Virus record (IMG/VR): IMGVR_UViG_2579778635_000004
Coordinates: 1 to 8,241 of that record
Source of the DNA: a virus
Lineage: Duplodnaviria; Heunggongvirae; Uroviricota; Caudoviricetes
Reading direction: 5' to 3' (one strand)
DNA: 8,241 bases
Part shown: piece after piece, positions 1 through 8,241 of the stretch
How positions within the stretch are numbered: position 1 is the stretch's first letter
How the letters are laid out: each line of letters opens with the position of its first letter
Notes under the pieces: model-generated
The model's input: the letters and a program-made list of their open reading frames with translations, nothing else
Told to the model about the DNA's origin: nothing
Databases searched by the model: none
Translations under genes and position numbers: made by a program

Positions 1-1
1 G

Positions 2-718
2 AGTCATGCGGTTTTTCCTGGCATCGTGCTTGCCTGGATTCTGGGGTTACCTCTGGCTACAGGGGCATTTATCGCCGGAGTATTCTGCGCGGTGGCGACG
101 GGATACCTGAAAGACAACAGCCGAATCAAGCAAGATACAGTGATGGGGATTGTTTTTTCTGGCATGTTTGCCGCAGGTCTGATCTTGTATATTGCAGTCA
201 AACCAGACATACATCTTGACCATATTCTTTTCGGCGACATGCTCGGGGTAACCATCGGCGATATAATCCAGACGATGATTATTGCCGGGCTGGTTACACT
301 TGTTATTAGCGTAAAATGGCGGGATTTTTTGCTGTTCAGCTTTGATTATCAACAGGCGCAGGTAAGCGGTTTGCATACGCGATGGCTGCATTATGGGCTG
401 CTGTGCATGGTTTCCCTGACCATTGTGGCGACGCTGAAAGCAGTAGGTATCATTCTCTCCATTTCTCTGCTCATTGCGCCTGGCGCCATTGCGGTACTCC
501 TGACACAACGCTTTCATATTGCACTCCTACTGGCGACTGGCATATCGGTAATAGTCTCAATGACTGGTGTTTGGCTGTCCTTTTTTATCGACAGCGCACC
601 AGCTCCGACGATTGTCGTCTTATTCGCGGTTGTGTTCATCATGACGTTTACCGTTATCAGTTTCAACGCACGCACAAAGGGAAACGCTCATAGACAGGAT
701 CTGTTATCCCCCAATTAG
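2..718 (+). CDS. sitD: ABC-type divalent-metal (Mn/Fe) uptake permease, inner-membrane subunit; 3' portion only, 5' end lies upstream of the window
   Basis: Frame is open from the window edge (codons phased from nt 2) to TAG at 716-718. Translation (...SHAVFPGIVLAWILGLPLATGAFIAGVFCAVATGYLKDNSRIKQDTVMGIVFSGMFAAGL...) is uniformly hydrophobic with the conserved pattern of ABC-3 (ZnuB/MntB/SitC/SitD) permeases. It is the last gene of a + strand operon lying beside lambdoid prophage genes, the context I recall for sitABCD in E. coli/Shigella. Assignment to sitD rather than another ABC-3 paralogue is from memory and context, not a search. Confidence 0.7.
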   Translation, partial: SHAVFPGIVLAWILGLPLATGAFIAGVFCAVATGYLKDNSRIKQDTVMGIVFSGMFAAGLILYIAVKPDIHLDHILFGDMLGVTIGDIIQTMIIAGLVTLVISVKWRDFLLFSFDYQQAQVSGLHTRWLHYGLLCMVSLTIVATLKAVGIILSISLLIAPGAIAVLLTQRFHIALLLATGISVIVSMTGVWLSFFIDSAPAPTIVVLFAVVFIMTFTVISFNARTKGNAHRQDLLSPN

Positions 719-879
719 CACAACATCCGAGGGCAGCATTGTCCGCTAGTACACTGCAGTCCAGAAAGTCATGGGCGGACGTTGGGAGGAGGTGCAAATC
801 CTCCCATACAAAAAATATATAAAATCAATAATGGATTGAAATTATTCAATACTCTCACCATCGACACTTCACCAGCGAA

Positions 880-921
880 CCGCAGCACGTTTTTGCATAA
901 GGCGTGTCTGCGGTTTTCTTT
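880..921 (+). terminator. Candidate intrinsic terminator downstream of the permease gene
   Basis: Imperfect inverted repeat ccgcagcacg (880-889) / cgtgtctgcgg (903-913, one bulged t) around a 13-nt loop, followed by ttttcttt (914-921). The loop is long, so stability is uncertain. Confidence 0.35.
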
Positions 922-1072
922 ATGATTTATGCACAATGGACAATTTGAAATTATTGATGATTGTATGGTGCATCGTTTTCTGAACCTACACTGATTTTTT
1001 GGTATAGCCTTGCCTAGCCAGTCTTACCGGATCAACCCCTTCGCTATTGCAATACTAACCAAAATCATCAAT

Positions 1073-1104
1073 TTGACAGCGATTAACCAGAATAATAGTA
1101 TACT
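1073..1104 (+). promoter_or_regulatory. Candidate sigma70-type promoter for the diguanylate cyclase gene
   Basis: Perfect -35 hexamer TTGACA at 1073-1078 and a -10-like TATACT at 1099-1104 (20-bp spacing, longer than optimal; alternative AT-rich -10 hexamers lie at 1091-1098). About 70 nt upstream of the ATG at 1174, in AT-rich DNA that also contains a (TA)5 tract at 1146-1156. A Shine-Dalgarno AGGTG sits at 1164-1168, 5 nt before the ATG. Confidence 0.3.
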
Positions 1105-1173
1105 ATCACCAGTAAGAAATTATCGTTATTTGTAGCGATACATATTATATATATATCATTCTCAGGTGCGTAC

Positions 1174-2505
1174 ATGATTATCAACCAGGTACCTATAAAA
1201 ATAAAAATCTTCATCTTTTTATTTTCATGCATCTCTATTATATTTTTGTTACTGCATGAAAATAATGGAATATACATAACACAAACAACACAAATAAGTT
1301 ATAGTGTTTTCATTATTGGGCTTTTTTTCATAAACCTGATGATTTTTATTTTTCTATTACTTTACTATGTCTCTAATCAGAGACAAAGTTATCTCTTAAT
1401 TCTTTCATTCGCGTTTTTGAGCAACACGTATTATTTATTAGAAGTGGCTATTATTTCTTTATCTCCGTTAGGTAACGATTTATCTACAATCTATCAGAAA
1501 TCAAATGATATCGCAATATATTATCTATTCCGTCAGTTCAGCTTTATATCTATAATCTTTCTGGCTGTTTATTCCACCAATGTTAAAAATAAAAGTGTTT
1601 TAGAAGATAAAAGAAACATAATAATTGTTGTTTTGTCAATATTAATTCTTTTTATTACTCCGTTTGTAGCAAAAAATCTAAGCAGTGACAATATAAAATA
1701 TAGTCTTAATATTATACAATACTCGCTGAATCGTCATTTGTCGACGTGGAATATCGTGTGCACCAAAATAATATCAGTATTTTGGCTTGTATTACTTATC
1801 AGCTCATGCATCAGCATACGTAATTACTCAAAAATATGGTTGTGTATAATACTTATTAGTATAGTGTCAGTATGCAATAATCTAATTTTATTGTATTTTA
1901 TTGATAAATCCCATCCTGCATGGTACATGACAAAATTTCTTGAATTGATATCAATGATTTATATTATTTCAACACTCATGTATTATGTTTTCAGGAAATT
2001 AAATCATGCTAATCATATGGCAATTCATGATCCACTAACGAATACATACAATAGAAGATACTTTATTGACTCATTGAAGAATATATCAAAACACCATGAT
2101 TTCTCAGTAATAATGTTAGATATTGACAGTTTCAAAAGCATCAATGACAAATGGGGGCATCATATGGGTGATCAAGTCATAGTAATGGTTACCAGAATAA
2201 TAAAAAAATCCATCAGGAAAGAGGATATATTAGGGCGCTTAGGCGGTGAGGAGTTCGGTATTATCATTAAAGGTAATACTCAAAAGCTCTTGCTATCAAT
2301 TGCAGAGCGAATCAGAAAAAACATTGAAGAGCAATGCTCGGAAAAATTATTATCGCATGGACCTGAGAAAATAACTGTCAGTATTGGTTGCTTTACTTCA
2401 AAAGAGAATAATCTCAGTCCATCTGAAATGTTAGTCAATGCCGATAAAGCGTTATATCAAGCCAAAAGAACCGGAAAAAACAAGGTGATAATTCACTCAA
2501 AATAA
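1174..2505 (+). CDS. Membrane-anchored GGDEF-domain diguanylate cyclase: N-terminal ~8-helix integral membrane sensor-like domain (MASE4/YcdT-like by recollection) plus C-terminal GGDEF domain
   Basis: 443-codon ORF, ATG at 1174 preceded by AGGTG, TAA stop at 2503-2505. The C-terminal ~160 aa carry GGDEF hallmarks: DPLTNTYNRRYF, MLDIDSFKSINDKWGH, active-site GGEEF (nt 2242-2256), I-site RxxD as RKED (nt 2215-2226) at canonical spacing, and KALYQAKRTGKNKV. The N-terminal ~280 aa are about eight hydrophobic segments rich in I/L/F. The gene is very AT-rich (13 G+C in nt 1201-1260 by hand count) against ~50-58% in flanking genes. Confidence 0.9.
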   Translation: MIINQVPIKIKIFIFLFSCISIIFLLLHENNGIYITQTTQISYSVFIIGLFFINLMIFIFLLLYYVSNQRQSYLLILSFAFLSNTYYLLEVAIISLSPLGNDLSTIYQKSNDIAIYYLFRQFSFISIIFLAVYSTNVKNKSVLEDKRNIIIVVLSILILFITPFVAKNLSSDNIKYSLNIIQYSLNRHLSTWNIVCTKIISVFWLVLLISSCISIRNYSKIWLCIILISIVSVCNNLILLYFIDKSHPAWYMTKFLELISMIYIISTLMYYVFRKLNHANHMAIHDPLTNTYNRRYFIDSLKNISKHHDFSVIMLDIDSFKSINDKWGHHMGDQVIVMVTRIIKKSIRKEDILGRLGGEEFGIIIKGNTQKLLLSIAERIRKNIEEQCSEKLLSHGPEKITVSIGCFTSKENNLSPSEMLVNADKALYQAKRTGKNKVIIHSK

Positions 2506-2532
2506 ACACCTTTTTAAAATACAGCCCCAATA

Positions 2533-2569
2533 AACTGCAGAATATTATCCCATATAATATCCTGCAGTT
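2533..2569. repeat. Near-perfect 16-bp-arm palindrome in the convergent intergenic gap between the cyclase gene and tfa
   Basis: aactgcagaatattat (2533-2548) / loop cccat (2549-2553) / ataatatcctgcagtt (2554-2569); the arms are reverse complements with one mismatch (a vs g). No strong T-run follows on either strand (a weak TTTATT follows on the - strand). It may be a bidirectional terminator or a protein-binding/recombination site. Confidence 0.4.
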
Positions 2570-2578
2570 CGTAATGCA

Positions 2579-3163
2579 CTATTCGATAATGGGTACTGTT
2601 GGCCATTCAATATCCGGTGCAGTTGTTGTATTAACACGGTTCAGCAACACCCGATACTTCTTCCATGCGGCCAGTAACGCTTTCTCTTCCTCCGTTGCGA
2701 TTTCCAGATCTGCAGCATCCTGAAGCGGCGCAATATGCTCACTGGCTACCTGCATCAGGTTGTTTTTTGTTTCTTCCGCCTCCCGGATCCGGAACAGTTT
2801 TTCTGCTTCCGTATCCTTCACCCAGGCTGTGCCGTTCCACTTCTGAAACTCCCCTTCCGGCGATAACCAGGTAACATTTTTCGGTAACGGACCGAGTTCA
2901 GAAATAAATAACGCGTCGCCGGAAGCCACGTCATAAACCGTTTTACCCCGATGATCTTCAACGAGATGCCACGATGACTCATCACTGTTGAAAACAGCCA
3001 CGAAGCCAGCCGGAATATCTGGCGGTGCAATATCGGTACTGTTTGCTGGCAGACCTGTATGAGGCGGAATATATGCATCACCTTCACCAATAAATTCATT
3101 AGTTCCGGCCAGCAGATTATAAATTGTTATGGTCCGTGGTTGTTCACTCATTCTGAATGCCAT
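2579..3163 (-). CDS. tfa: Tail fibre assembly protein (lambda Tfa family chaperone)
   Basis: 194 aa beginning [58 protein letters not shown]..., which matches lambda-type Tfa as I remember it. ATG at 3161-3163 overlaps the stf stop (TAATG); TAG stop at 2579-2581. Position directly after stf is the canonical lambda order. Confidence 0.95.
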
Positions 3164-6100
3164 TATGCAAGCCTCACAATATAGTTAAATGCGATGTTTT
3201 TGACGGTGTTTTCCGCGTTACCAGCAGCGTTAACGGTGATGGTGTGTCCATGTGAGCCAATCGCAACCGAGTGCGTATGAGCACCAATACCGACAGTATG
3301 TGCGTGAGCACCTGCAGATGCAGCTGTGCCGCTGACACTATGAGTGTGCGCTCCTGCAGCACTTGTATTCACACTGGCCGCAGACACTACCTTATGTACT
3401 GACCCATTTTGTGACCACTGGCTGACTGCTGATGCGCCTGTGACACTATGAGTATGGTTTCCGGCACTTGCGGCTGTACCGCTCACACTGTGCGTATGCG
3501 CCCCGATGTTATTCGTGGATTTAGTGCCGTAATCAAACGACGATGTGGTTTTCGTCCCCAAATCCGTACTGGATGCGCTGGCGCTGTGGGTGTGCGATTT
3601 AATGCCGTCCTGTTCCTGAGACAATACAGCCCGACCACTGGCAGGTTTGCCCTTAATCGTCCAGCCACGCATATCAGGGATCACGCCTGACGGATAAGCG
3701 GCTGCAAGTTTCGGGTATGCAGATTTGTCAAAAGTCTGCCCCTGCATCAGGGCATAACCAGACGGAACGGTATCTGATGGCCACGGGATTGGTGCACCGA
3801 CTGGATAAAACTCTGCAGGAGGATGAGCCGAGGTGTAAAGCTGCGCCCACGGCGACCAGTTTGCGTCGGTCGTATCCCGTCGTGAACGAATAAATGCCGG
3901 AGCATGAGCACCGCTTGTACCACTCCAGCCGATGAGTAACTCACCTTCGCCAACGGCTGTCATCCCTTTCAGGTGAATGATATTTCCATACGTTGTTGGA
4001 TATCCGTTGTTATACACCTCGTATAACTCAAGACCTGCTGCCCCCTGCGTATTGTCTGTCAGCGCGGCTACCCGACCTTTTGAAGCCAGATTAACTGATG
4101 ATACTGCTGTTCCACCTGACGGTAGCGCCCCGATCTCTGATGCCGTTGGCTTATTTCTGGAGTTATAGTCCCTTCGCCAGCCAGGTGAATAATCTGTTCC
4201 GTGATTAATATAGGTAAACTGGGCGTTGGTTGTTCCGCCACCGCTGGATGTGGTCGGAGTGGTAATGCGGATCGTCATCGCTGACTTTATCCCCATTACT
4301 TCAATGACAGCTCCGGCGAGATGAATATTACCGCAGCCAGTATCAGTAATGATTTTATTATTGCCATAAGACCAGGAACCCTTGCACATCCAGTATGGAT
4401 GGTTAAATGCTCCCTGAGAATCCAGCCACTCGATAAACTGTGCAGTCGTCCAGTTTCCTGTTGTTGTGCTTACTGACCCACCGAAGGCACGGCAGGCACC
4501 AATATTTTTCGTAAAGGTGTCTTTGCCAGGGATATCCGCACCGTTCTGATCTTTCTGCAGACGTTTCTCAGCATTGTCATTGGCTGCTTTTACTGCCTTT
4601 GGCGTTGCCGCCAGCGTTTCAGACGTGCTGTTGGTCGCGCTGCTTAGCTGGATTATCCCTTTCTGTGCTGTCGTTGCATCCTGTGCGGTGTATTTCCCGT
4701 TAGCCAGGTCATACGCGGCCTTAACGGCTTTTGGTGTTGCCGCCAGTGACTCGGAAGTGCTGTTAGTCGCACTACTGAGCTGTACTATCCCCTTTTTTGT
4801 CGTGCTCGCATCCTCAAGCGCCACGGCGGATGCAATATCCTCTGCCCGTTTTGCCGCTGTCTCAGCGCGCGTTGCTGCAGATTCCGCCGTACTTTTGCTC
4901 TGAGCTGCTGCCTTCGCACTACCAGCAGCCTCTGTCGCCTTCGTGGATGCCGTCGTGGCGCTGCCCTTCGCTGCTGACGCCTGTCTGGTCGCCTCATCTT
5001 TTGAAGCAGACGCCGATGATGCCGATGACGCCGCCGAACTGGCGGACGATGCCGCTGCCGTTTTTGAGGATTCTGCACGGGTTTCCGACGCTTTCGCGTT
5101 CGTTTCGGATGTCTTCGCTGCGGAAGCTGACCTCGCTGCTGCCGTGGCCTGCTCAGTGGCTTCGCCAGCCTTTGTTGTGGCTGTTGAAGCGGATGATGCG
5201 GCGCTTTCTGCCGATTTTCCGGCGGCGGTGGCACTGGCTGAGGCCTGCCCGGCACTTGTTGACGCGGCACTGGCAGACGACGCAGCCGCTGTTTTTGAGC
5301 CTGCCGCAGCTGAGGCGCTCTGTCCCGCTGCCGTCTCAGAAGACCTGGCGTTCGTCTCGGACGTTTTTGCCGCCTTCGCGGAATTTCCTGCCGCCGTTGC
5401 CGAGGAAGCTGCGCTACTGGCGCTCAAGGATGCGTTCGTTTCTGATGATTTCGCTGCCTCTTTTGAGGCCGCCGCATCCCGGGCTGAAGTGGCGGCTTCT
5501 GACGCTTTCGTCGTCGCAGTGGATGCAGAAGTGGCTGCTGATTTTTGTGACGCTGCAGCATTCGTTTCTGACGTTTTCGCGGCACCGGCACTGGTGGCCG
5601 CCGCGCTTTTTGAGGACTCTGCAGCGGCAGCACTTTTTGATGCTTCAGTGGCCTTTGTTGATGCCGTTCCTGCGCTGGAAGACGCCTCCTGAGCCGACGT
5701 CGCGGCCTGTCCGGCTGACGTGCTGGCTGCACGCGCTGAGCCTGCAGCATCAGTCGCATGGGTTGCCGCCTCACTGGCAGATGTGCCGGCATCACTGGCT
5801 GACTTCTTCGCGGCTGCCGTGTTCTGTGCCACCGCGGACGCGTTACGCGCCACCTCTTCCACCATCAGTTCAAAACGGCGCAGAGCCTCCGGACGGGCAT
5901 CATCCTCCGTCATGGCACCGAGAAAATCATTCAGCGTACCGGGTCGGGAATCTTCATACACGGTGATGGTCCCGGCATGTGACGGCGGGAATCCTTCCAC
6001 CAACAGAATAACGCTGTACTGACCGTACTCAACGTCCATGCTGTAACGCCCGGCTTCATCCGGATTTTCTGAGGCCAGCGTGTTCACCACCACCGTGGTG

Positions 6101-6189
6101 CTGTTACGTTTTGCTTTCAGCTGGATTGTGCAGTTCTGTACCGGTTTTCCTGTGCCGTCTTTCAGTACACCTGAAATCTTTACTGCCAT
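3163..6189 (-). CDS. stf: Side tail fibre protein (lambda Stf family), mosaic
   Basis: Long uninterrupted ORF. The ATG at 6187-6189 ([37 protein letters not shown]...) is the likely start, with GGGG 6-9 nt upstream; the ORF track's GTG at 6195 would add only MN. The N-terminus, the Ala/Ser/Thr-rich repeats with recurring AK(T/S)SETNA motifs, the His-rich HxH C-terminal region ([40 protein letters not shown]) and the final [18 protein letters not shown] all resemble lambda Stf. TAA stop at 3163-3165. Confidence 0.95.
4590..4810 (-). repeat. Tandem duplication inside stf encoding two copies of a conserved tail-fibre repeat motif
   Basis: The protein has [28 protein letters not shown] and [28 protein letters not shown] separated by ~15 aa. 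The DNA copies (about 4594-4675 and 4723-4806) are visibly similar, e.g. ctttggcgttgccgccagcgtttcagacgtgctgttggtcgc vs cttttggtgttgccgccagtgactcggaagtgctgttagtcgc. Confidence 0.75.
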
Positions 6190-6200
6190 ATTCACCCCAC

Positions 6201-6227
6201 AAAAAAGCCCGCCTGAACCGGCGGGCT
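6201..6227 (-). terminator. Intrinsic terminator between lom and stf (- strand)
   Basis: On the - strand: AGCCCGCC (6227-6220) / 6-nt loop / GGCGGGCT (6213-6206), GC-rich 8-bp stem, immediately followed by TTTTTT (complement of a 6201-6206), then GTGGGG and the stf ATG. Confidence 0.6.
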
Positions 6228-6253
6228 GTCATAACACTGTGTTACCTGGCTAA

Positions 6254-6853
6254 TCAGAACTTATAACCGACACCCATGATGAAACCGTCAGTGCGCCAGT
6301 CGCCACTGCCGGAGCCTTCATAAGCAATATCAATGGCCACGGATTCGGTCGGGTTAAACTGCACGCCAGCTCCCCACGCCAGAGACGTGTTGCTGTGGCG
6401 ACCGTCATCACTTCCGGTCAGCACATCGTGCGTTTTCCCCTTGTTGTCAGTTACGCGAAGATAATCCCCGGAGAAAGTCGACACACGGCTGTAAGCCACA
6501 CCCGCCATCGCATACGCGCTGAACCATTCATTCACGCGCACAGACGGCCCCGCCATTACGCTGAACCAGCGGTTACGAACGGAATCTTCATGCCAGCGGG
6601 TATCGCTGTAACGGGTCAGCTGGCGATTCTTGTCTCCTGCATAGCTGAATGACGTCACCAGCCCCAACGTGTCCGTAAACTCATAACGGTATTTCACGTT
6701 AATCCCGTTCAGATCATCACTGCCGGGAACGTTCGTCGAGGCATGAAGATACCCCGCGCTCAGCGTGGACTGATGTTCAGACGCCCATGCAGGCGCACCG
6801 GATACGGCCAGACAAATGGCTGCGGACAAAATTGCTGCACAAACTTTACGCAT
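6254..6853 (-). CDS. lom: Lom outer-membrane protein (Ail/Lom/PagC/OmpX family beta-barrel), prophage-encoded
   Basis: 199 aa: MRKVCAAILSAAICLAVSGAPAWASEHQSTLSAGYLHASTNVPGSDDLNGINVKYRYEFTDTLGLVTSFSYAGDKNRQL...GFIMGVGYKF. It has a signal peptide (cleavage likely after AWA), alternating beta-strand pattern and C-terminal aromatic residue, and closely matches lambda Lom as I recall it. SD GAGAGG precedes the ATG at 6851-6853; it lies between J and stf as in lambda. Confidence 0.95.
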   Translation of the reverse strand: MRKVCAAILSAAICLAVSGAPAWASEHQSTLSAGYLHASTNVPGSDDLNGINVKYRYEFTDTLGLVTSFSYAGDKNRQLTRYSDTRWHEDSVRNRWFSVMAGPSVRVNEWFSAYAMAGVAYSRVSTFSGDYLRVTDNKGKTHDVLTGSDDGRHSNTSLAWGAGVQFNPTESVAIDIAYEGSGSGDWRTDGFIMGVGYKF

Positions 6854-6877
6854 AATTACCTCTCGCTTTTCTGCAAT

Positions 6878-6901
6878 AAAAAAGGCGTCATTCCTGACGC
6901 C
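6878..6901 (-). terminator. Candidate intrinsic terminator between J and lom (- strand)
   Basis: On the - strand: GGCGTCA (6901-6895) / loop GGAA / TGACGCC (6890-6884), followed by TTTTTT (complement of a 6878-6883). It sits 22 nt after the J stop (TGA at 6924-6926) and before the lom SD. Confidence 0.5.
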
Positions 6902-6923
6902 ATTTATTGGGGTTATAAATATT

Positions 6924-8241
6924 TCAACGAATACTGATGCCGGAAGCAGCTTTTTTGGTCACAATCACCGTACAGTCGGTGATATTGCCTGCCCCCTGAT
7001 TGCCTTTCTGGAAAATCTTAAACTCCAGAGTGACGCTACCACCACCACTAGGCATATCAATAACTGCACTGTAACTACCGGGAATGGCCCCTTTAGTTTC
7101 TCTGGATGCGATTAATACGCCGTTTTTGCGAACTTCAAAACCATAACCCGTGTATCGCGTGCCTCCTGGGTTATTTCCGCTCCCCGGATCGTCATACGCT
7201 ATACCGTTAAAAATAATGGGCGGAATAATAATCTGGCGGTCAAAGTTATGATCATCGCTGATGGTGACTGTAACCGTACCGTTTGGTGTTTCCGTGTTAC
7301 CCCACGTACCGACTTTTTTCGGGAAGGCTTTTGATACAGCTTTAACGAAATCCCCTCTGACCTGGGTCGCCTCCAGCATGCCCTTAATCGTACAGTTCTG
7401 GTTAATCGTGACATTGTTGAGCGTTCCTGAGTTCGCATTCACACTGCCACTGATATCCGCATTTTTAGCGGTCAGCTTTCCGTCTGATGTCAGGGAAAAT
7501 ACCGGAGGACTGCCACCGCTGGTAATGGTGGGGGCCGTCAGGCGCTTCAGGAACACGTCGTTCATGAATATCTGGTTGCCCTGCGCCACAAACATCGGCG
7601 TTTCATTCCCGTTTGCCGGGTCAATAAACGCGATACGGTTAGCGGCAACCAGAAACTGGCTCAGCTTGCCTTCCTCCGTGTCCTCCATGCTGAGGCCAAT
7701 ACCCGCGACATAATGTTTGCCGTCTTTGGTCTGCTCAATTTTGACGCCCCACATGGCATTCCATTTATCGTTAGCGTCCTTCCACTCTTTCGAAAACTCA
7801 TCCAGTCTGCTGGCGTTATCCTCCGTCAGATCGACTTTTTCCAGCAGCTCCTTGCCGAGATGAGATTCGGTTATCTTGCCTTTGAAAAAATCCAGGTAAC
7901 CTTCCGCATCATCGCTCGCCCGACCGACGGCTTCCACGAATGCCGATTTGCCAACGGTGTTCACACTGCGGATATAAAAGTAATAATCATGGCCCGGTTT
8001 GATATTGATACTGGCGGCTATCCAGTACAGCGCCGTACCAAGATAGCGGGCTGTGGTTTCAACCTGCCTGATATCGGTAATCCGCTTTTCCGAGAACCAG
8101 AACTCAAACTGTACCGTCGGGTCATAAACGGCAAGATGCGGCGTGGCGGTTATCTGAAAATAGCCCGGCGTCAGCTCAATCCTCGACGGTGCTGCCGGTG
8201 CGGCAATCCGGAACGATACCGACGCCGGATCGCCCTGCTGC
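6924..8241 (-). CDS. J: Tail tip / host-specificity protein J (central tail fibre), C-terminal ~439 aa; 5' end lies beyond the right edge of the window
   Basis: The frame stays open on the - strand from the window edge to TGA at 6924-6926; the ORF track's 346-aa ORF is only the part after an internal GTG. Hand translation upstream of that GTG gives ...[45 protein letters not shown]..., matching the lambda J C-terminal region as I recall it. The last ~130 aa differ from lambda J. Confidence 0.93.

Follow-up and report, generated by a model that had tools for sequence, protein, structure and literature searches.

The stretch of DNA analyzed here (the window: 8,241 nucleotides, positions 1 to 8,241 of the IMG/VR virus record IMGVR_UViG_2579778635_000004, Caudoviricetes) carries on its minus strand the distal end of a lambdoid prophage tail operon. 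The genes lie in the order J - lom - stf - tfa, as they do in phage lambda and in Escherichia coli strain H10; the plus strand holds a low-GC gene for a MASE4-GGDEF protein and the end of sitD. Our subject is the side tail fibre gene, stf, and in particular the central region of its product, which differs from that of lambda. Stf residues are numbered from the GTG at 6195 (residue 1), so that the methionine equivalent to the lambda start is residue 3; starting at this alternative ATG (6189), as annotated in databases, gives a protein of 1008 amino acids. The start of tfa overlaps the stf stop, and the 3' end of stf together with tfa is 92% identical in nucleotide sequence to lambda. The coordinates and the evidence for each feature are collected in Table 1.

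Table 1. Genes of the tail operon in the window and the parts of Stf (residues in Stf numbering).
Feature	Positions	Strand	Basis
J, C-terminal part	6924-7964	minus	Open reading frame (ORF) list and Pfam
Lom, Ail/Lom outer membrane protein	6254-6853	minus	ORF list and Pfam
stf, side tail fibre gene	3163-6195	minus	ORF list; 1010 amino acids counted from GTG at 6195
N-terminal tail-attachment domain of lambda StfN type, residues 3-136	5788-6189	minus	PF08400, E 1.4e-71; 87% nucleotide identity to lambda
Ala/Ser/Thr-rich proximal shaft, residues 137-460	4816-5787	minus	Composition: 122 Ala, 75 Ser and 41 Thr in 324 residues
Two Phage_fiber_2 repeats, residues ~461-548, '...[10 protein letters not shown](S/T)LAATPKAVK...'	4552-4815	minus	PF03406, two stretches, E 5.9e-37
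Module A, residues ~549-690, compact alpha/beta knob of Mu S'/P1 Sv'/P2-like H type, holding C568, C604 and C621	4126-4551	minus	
Module B, residues ~691-795, beta-rich knob, ending '...[10 protein letters not shown]'	3811-4125	minus	P1/AG74 similarity, PHROGs
C-terminal collar, needle and tip of T4 gp37/lambda Stf type, residues 796-1010	3166-3810	minus	PDB 2XGF, Pfam PF07484
Hypervariable head patch of the tip, residues 893-961	3313-3519	minus	Drop in identity to lambda, T4 gp37 and StfR
tfa, tail fibre assembly chaperone, 194 amino acids	2579-3163	minus	Pfam PF02413 Caudo_TAP, E 4.4e-43

When Stf was compared by BLASTP with the intact lambda Stf (774 amino acids; KT232076), residues 3-354 proved 80% identical to lambda 1-352 and residues 797-1010 68% identical to lambda 530-774, while the Phage_fiber_2 region aligned to lambda ~330-398 with a single lambda repeat set against the two in Stf. 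Between these parts, residues ~549-796 have no detectable similarity to lambda 398-529. An earlier note on this DNA, written from the letters without database searches, had proposed that Stf is a mosaic of lambda-type ends and a non-lambda centre encoded by 3815-4590 (residues 536-794). This proposal was borne out: the best BLASTP alignment of the 258 amino acids encoded there to lambda Stf has an E value of 4, the match to lambda DNA ends at 4589 and restarts at 3798, close to the limits that the note had given, and the collinear, highly similar centre that would have spoken against it was not seen in an alignment along the whole length of the protein. Because residues 549-796 are unlike lambda, membership of the family rests on the ends and the gene context, by which Stf can be placed in the lambda Stf/StfR family as a member with a different centre. 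The likenesses to Ur-lambda Stf/Tfa comprise the position of the genes, the PF08400 N terminus, the Phage_fiber_2 region and the collar and needle of gp37 type.

Within the lambda-like part, the N-terminal domain is identified as the anchoring domain of lambdoid side fibres both by Pfam and by a match of residues 3-96 to chain Ta ('Tail fiber protein') of PDB 9E7M (E 1.3e-51). The shaft is lambda-like yet ~100 residues longer than that of lambda; this extra length and the doubled repeat fall at 4552-5280 (residues ~305-548). Along the shaft, nucleotide similarity to lambda is confined to residues 1-305 and 407-493, leaving residues 306-406 without a lambda DNA match, and the Phage_fiber_2 repeat is 75-84% identical in nucleotide sequence to both lambda and the H gene of the P2-like phage fiAA91-ss. 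The GC content of the centre (~50%, against 60-64% in the shaft) was considered as a sign of foreign origin and rejected as such, since the difference reflects the Ala-rich codons of the shaft.

The centre consists of modules A and B, both of which are found in the fibres of other phages. PHROGs assigns the region to several tail fibre families, and a translated search of phage genomes located it in P1 (Sv'), P7, D6, D108/Mu (S'), many P2-like H genes and Goslar, as well as in Vibrio, Aeromonas and Shewanella phages. Module A shares 82% identity with residues 215-358 of P1 Sv', 72% with D108 S' over its first 137 residues and 51% with the C-terminal domain of a fibre of Vibrio phage pA2SJ1, and it matches a domain of the solved Mu S-S' fibre (PDB 8JU3) with an E value of 1.9e-85 for the whole chain and 3e-69 for the best stretch. 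Module B is 64% identical to residues 47-153 of P1 Sv' and 45% identical to residues 424-546 of Vibrio phage AG74 gp36, where it forms the penultimate domain of a protein that holds a second, more divergent copy; it is common to the repeat region of the P1 S C-segment, Goslar gp90 and AG74 gp36 (PHROGs 22609 and 37852). A search of solved structures with module B returned nothing convincing besides 8JU3, and an AlphaFold2 (AF2) monomer model reached a mean predicted local distance difference test score (pLDDT) of 67, with 62-77 in module B. Pfam, run on the centre alone, gave a Gp34_trimer match below threshold (18.3 bits, where the cut-off is 27) and a TPR match due to chance, neither of which supplies a functional label. 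What the earlier note did not recognize from lambda Stf is thus a known domain type of solved structure, module A, joined to a common fibre module, B.

To follow the distribution of the two modules, 1.84 billion cluster representatives were searched exhaustively with HMMER, and 999 clusters matched at E <= 0.001. Of the 150 best, module A is present in 136, module B in 46 and both in 32; B precedes A in 20 of the latter and follows it in 12, and the proteins range from ~90 to ~3600 amino acids. The P1 Sv' protein has B before A, the reverse of the order in Stf. On this distribution the two modules can be regarded as independent of each other. Two further observations concern module B. In the P1 record it matches two inverted positions of the C-segment, 3073-3320 and 6659-6906, and thus appears to be present in both fibre forms, Sv and Sv', with module A specific to Sv'. 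Its last ~255 nucleotides (3815-4070) recur at 99% identity in a fragment annotated as 'phage tail protein' beside nohA in E. coli K-12; pieces of the cassette are therefore scattered among other cryptic prophages.

The closest relatives of module A differ from Stf in their setting. Mu/D108 S' and P1 Sv' share the module at 72-82% identity, but they belong to the baseplates of myophages, their genes lie in invertible G/C segments together with a Gin/Cin invertase, and they finish in another distal domain, with U' chaperones; in Stf, A and B sit inside the side fibre of a siphophage, which has a gp37-type tip. No invertase is found among the annotated features of the window, where the larger ORFs encode SitD, the GGDEF protein, Tfa, Stf, Lom and J (a scan of every ORF for recombinase domains was not part of this survey), and none is annotated at the equivalent locus of strain H10. 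It is the module, and not the invertible system, that is of the Mu/P1 type.

The position of the junctions indicates what modules A and B replace. The upstream flank is the Phage_fiber_2 repeat ending in ATPKAVK (lambda ~393-398) and the downstream flank is the start of the collar, GAPIPWPSD (lambda ~529); both sequences are common to many fibre genes, and both junctions are in frame. In a study of Ur-lambda by cryo-electron microscopy and tomography, residues 1-91 of Stf are assigned to StfN, 102-393, beyond a linker, to a proximal coiled coil (the counterpart of the Ala/Ser/Thr shaft), 394-422 to a hinge and 423-525 to a distal stalk, ahead of a receptor-binding domain (PMC12617516). By this map A and B stand in place of the lambda hinge and distal stalk (lambda residues ~394-529; 398-529 in the alignment). 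Functional engineered chimeras of the lambda fibre have been fused at R393 and S528 (PMC11338833), ~5 residues and 1 residue, respectively, from the natural junctions.

A third centre is found between the same flanks in StfR of the K-12 Rac prophage (1120 amino acids) and its H10 allele. Residues 3-567 and 768-1010 of Stf are, respectively, 87-88% and 80-93% identical to StfR, and from residue 805 to the end the H10 protein is identical to Stf; StfR has, however, a different centre of ~355 amino acids, which lacks module A and retains only the last third of module B. The H10 locus (uspF - sitABCD - diguanylate cyclase gene - tfaR - stfR - lom - J) is the same as that of the window, and the window prophage sits at the E. 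coli Rac site. Since lambda, K-12/H10 StfR and the allele described here have three different centres between common flanks, the middle of the fibre is evidently a recombination-prone cassette, and domain swapping, which the earlier note had invoked as a process, is documented by the same three alleles. Our preferred interpretation, to which we assign a probability of roughly 70%, is that the central region is an interchangeable structural cassette of a prophage side tail fibre of the lambdoid Stf/StfR family.

A second site of exchange lies within the tip. Residues 796-1010 align without gaps to residues 812-1026 of T4 gp37 at 69% identity, match residues 28-242 of the chain in the T4 gp37 tip structure (PDB 2XGF, E 4.2e-87) and comprise a collar domain (PF07484, E 6.8e-12) followed by seven HxH motifs, a number shared with gp37; the lambda tip has eight and three insertions relative to the framework shared by Stf and gp37. 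Everything upstream of the Stf collar is unrelated to gp37, and the chaperone encoded downstream is a lambda-type Tfa, whereas the T4 record annotates gp38 as the assembly catalyst of gp37. Within this tip, the head patch (residues 893-961) is 40% identical to lambda, 34% to T4 gp37 and 58% to K-12 StfR, in contrast to its flanks, which are 79-86% identical to lambda and T4 and 79-100% identical across lambda, T4 gp37 and StfR. The patch is identical in H10 StfR, and residues 893-949 have no lambda match at the DNA level. Of the lambda-like C terminus described in the earlier note, the collar and needle framework stands, and the likeness fails in the gapless fit to T4 gp37, the missing lambda insertions and the divergent patch. 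Read from these identities, residues 893-961 form a second mosaic patch inside a gp37-type tip. The patch is probably the receptor-contact region and the determinant of primary receptor choice, and is more likely to have this role than is the central swap; because it differs so much from the related tips, the receptor of Stf cannot be assumed from theirs, for which OmpC or LPS would be expected.

Taken together, these comparisons suggest the following model. Stf would be a trimeric, modular fibre, anchored to the tail by the StfN-type domain and running from this anchor through the Ala/Ser/Thr coiled shaft and the Phage_fiber_2 repeats to knobs A and B and the gp37-type collar, needle and tip. 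A and B were most likely exchanged by recombination at the two common sequences, the ATPKAVK repeat upstream and GAPIPWPSD downstream, and may act mainly as spacer or joint knobs on which the length and geometry of the distal half-fibre depend, in place of the hinge and stalk. The tip, which presumably folds with the downstream-encoded Tfa as its chaperone, would bind an outer-membrane receptor first and reversibly, and so speed adsorption before J binds its own receptor, with primary receptor specificity residing in the hypervariable head of the needle.

The alternative that fares best is that the fibre has two receptor-binding domains, with A and B providing a second, lateral site, for example for sugars of the lipopolysaccharide (LPS) core or O-antigen as in Mu G(-)/P1 C(-). 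Module A is 72-82% identical to the host-range-determining variable parts of the Mu/D108 and P1 fibres, fibres with two receptor-binding domains in one polypeptide have been described (PMC11990801), and the same study suggests that Ur-lambda Stf engages the O16 O-antigen as well as OmpC (PMC11990801). Two observations weigh directly against a purely structural cassette: module A is the last domain of a 310-residue fibre in Vibrio phage pA2SJ1, and in 16 of the 136 representatives that carry A, some of them perhaps truncated contigs, at most 40 residues come after it. Because of these cases module A can sit at the tip of a fibre and might bind a receptor there. In the Mu, P1 and P2-like fibres, however, a further distal domain comes after A, and both modules are found at widely varying internal positions. 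We consider a lateral site unlikely, and a more specific version, in which this site (e.g., for the LPS core) would be inherited from fibres like those of Mu G(-)/P1 C(-) and would cooperate with the gp37-type tip, somewhat less likely again. If a lateral site were present, the exchange of centres among lambda, StfR and the Stf described here would constitute a host-range switch independent of the tip.

We regard as very improbable the suggestion that the centre is a disulfide-stabilized or metal-binding module defined by its cysteines. The earlier note had counted four cysteines in the centre of an otherwise Cys-free protein. Stf does have four in total, but only C568 (codon 4492-4494), C604 (4384-4386) and C621 (4333-4335) lie in the centre; the fourth, C22, is in the lambda-like N-terminal domain, and lambda Stf has a cysteine there too. 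Three cysteines in 247 residues amount to 1.2%, which is about the usual frequency in proteomes, and the region appears enriched because the rest of the protein is a Cys-free, low-complexity Ala/Ser/Thr shaft. Conservation among close relatives does speak for the suggestion: C604 and C621 are each kept in 24 of 24 homologues with at least 80% identity, and in 122 homologue alignments of module A a cysteine is present at the positions of C568, C604 and C621 in 98, 114 and 121, respectively. Across homologues, however, the cysteines are neither uniformly conserved nor lost only in pairs. Written as the residues at the three positions, the independent losses include A-C-C (6 cases), G-C-C (3), x-A-C (6) and A-M-V (1), as well as S-C-C; homologues at 50-80% identity lose each cysteine singly, with replacement by Ala/Gly/Ser, Ala/Met/Val or Ile/Val/Leu/Phe. 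Among cluster representatives with less than 60% identity, the cysteine is kept in 2 of 22 at C568, 13 of 37 at C604 and 24 of 36 at C621, and is replaced by Ser/Ala/Gly, Ala/Gly/Ser/Val and Leu/Phe, respectively. The domains of Vibrio pA2SJ1 and Aeromonas Aeh1 are 51-52% identical to module A yet lack C604 and C621, and these two phages, together with P1 and D108, have extra cysteines at non-equivalent sites. In addition, tail fibres fold in the reducing cytoplasm. Because the cysteines are lost one at a time, and for small or hydrophobic residues, a conserved disulfide or metal site is unlikely, and a facultative disulfide in this particular allele is unlikely as well. Most simply, the three would be ordinary, probably buried residues of module A at positions that take small or hydrophobic side-chains. 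Metal binding, if sought in Stf, is far more likely to be found in the C-terminal HxH needle than in the centre; in the 2XGF structure, iron is reportedly coordinated by the HxH histidines.

That stf is a decaying, non-functional remnant with debris of illegitimate recombination at its centre can hardly be correct and was rejected: although the prophage occupies the Rac site, where K-12 has a cryptic prophage, and Stf is dispensable for plaque formation by lambda (PMC12617516), the 1010-residue ORF is intact with in-frame junctions at conserved motifs, the frames of lom, tfa and the 3' portion of J in the window are open, the allele is found at 97-98% identity in isolated phages deposited with named hosts, and A and B are well-formed domains in hundreds of other fibres.

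Several observations concern the surrounding DNA and related records. ORFs of 389, 249, 161, 123 and 100 amino acids overlap the shaft at 4785-6022 in other frames or on the opposite strand; their translations are of low complexity (Ala/Asp-rich or Pro/Arg/Gln-rich), and they seem to arise from the GC-rich, repetitive codons and not to be genes. Between sitD and tfa, the plus strand carries the MASE4-GGDEF diguanylate cyclase gene (1174-2505, flanks 719-2578; 26-30% GC). E. coli H10 has the same gene, as do about 80 other genomes, and in the otherwise near-identical SPF_0923 it is absent, with a spacer of only ~212 bp between sitD and tfa; it looks like a recent low-GC insertion at the end of the prophage. 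The SPF_0923 record itself (ON032529.1, 'Salmonella phage SPF_0923') was deposited as a complete phage genome, and its positions 8830-13033 run past tfa into sitDCBA and uspF, which are chromosomal neighbours of the Rac-site prophage in E. coli H10. The record is probably a prophage region with a host flank, and its Salmonella label is doubtful.

The stf allele is widespread. The whole gene is 97-98% identical in nucleotide sequence to the side fibre genes of PhiR29_1/2, PhiR68_2, mEp460_ev081 and SPF_0923 and up to 98.9% identical to sequences in E. coli chromosomes; of 5426 complete E. coli genomes, 639 contain at least 80% of stf and 800 at least 80% of the central cassette. A literature search on the PhiR phages, which are ECOR-derived, turned up nothing on this particular fibre. 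It has long been established that lambda, P2, Mu, P1 and T4 trade segments of their fibres, and tail fibre genes are a textbook case of modular exchange between unrelated phages. The mosaic is therefore correctly observed but ordinary, given a widespread allele, a form of exchange already known and a solved module A, and it carries little weight as a discovery in a fibre so common among E. coli prophages and sequenced phages. Its practical value lies in the natural junctions, which fall near the sites chosen for fusion when lambda particles were engineered to carry new fibres, and the three natural centres set in the same flanks are ready material for asking what the middle of a side tail fibre contributes to adsorption.

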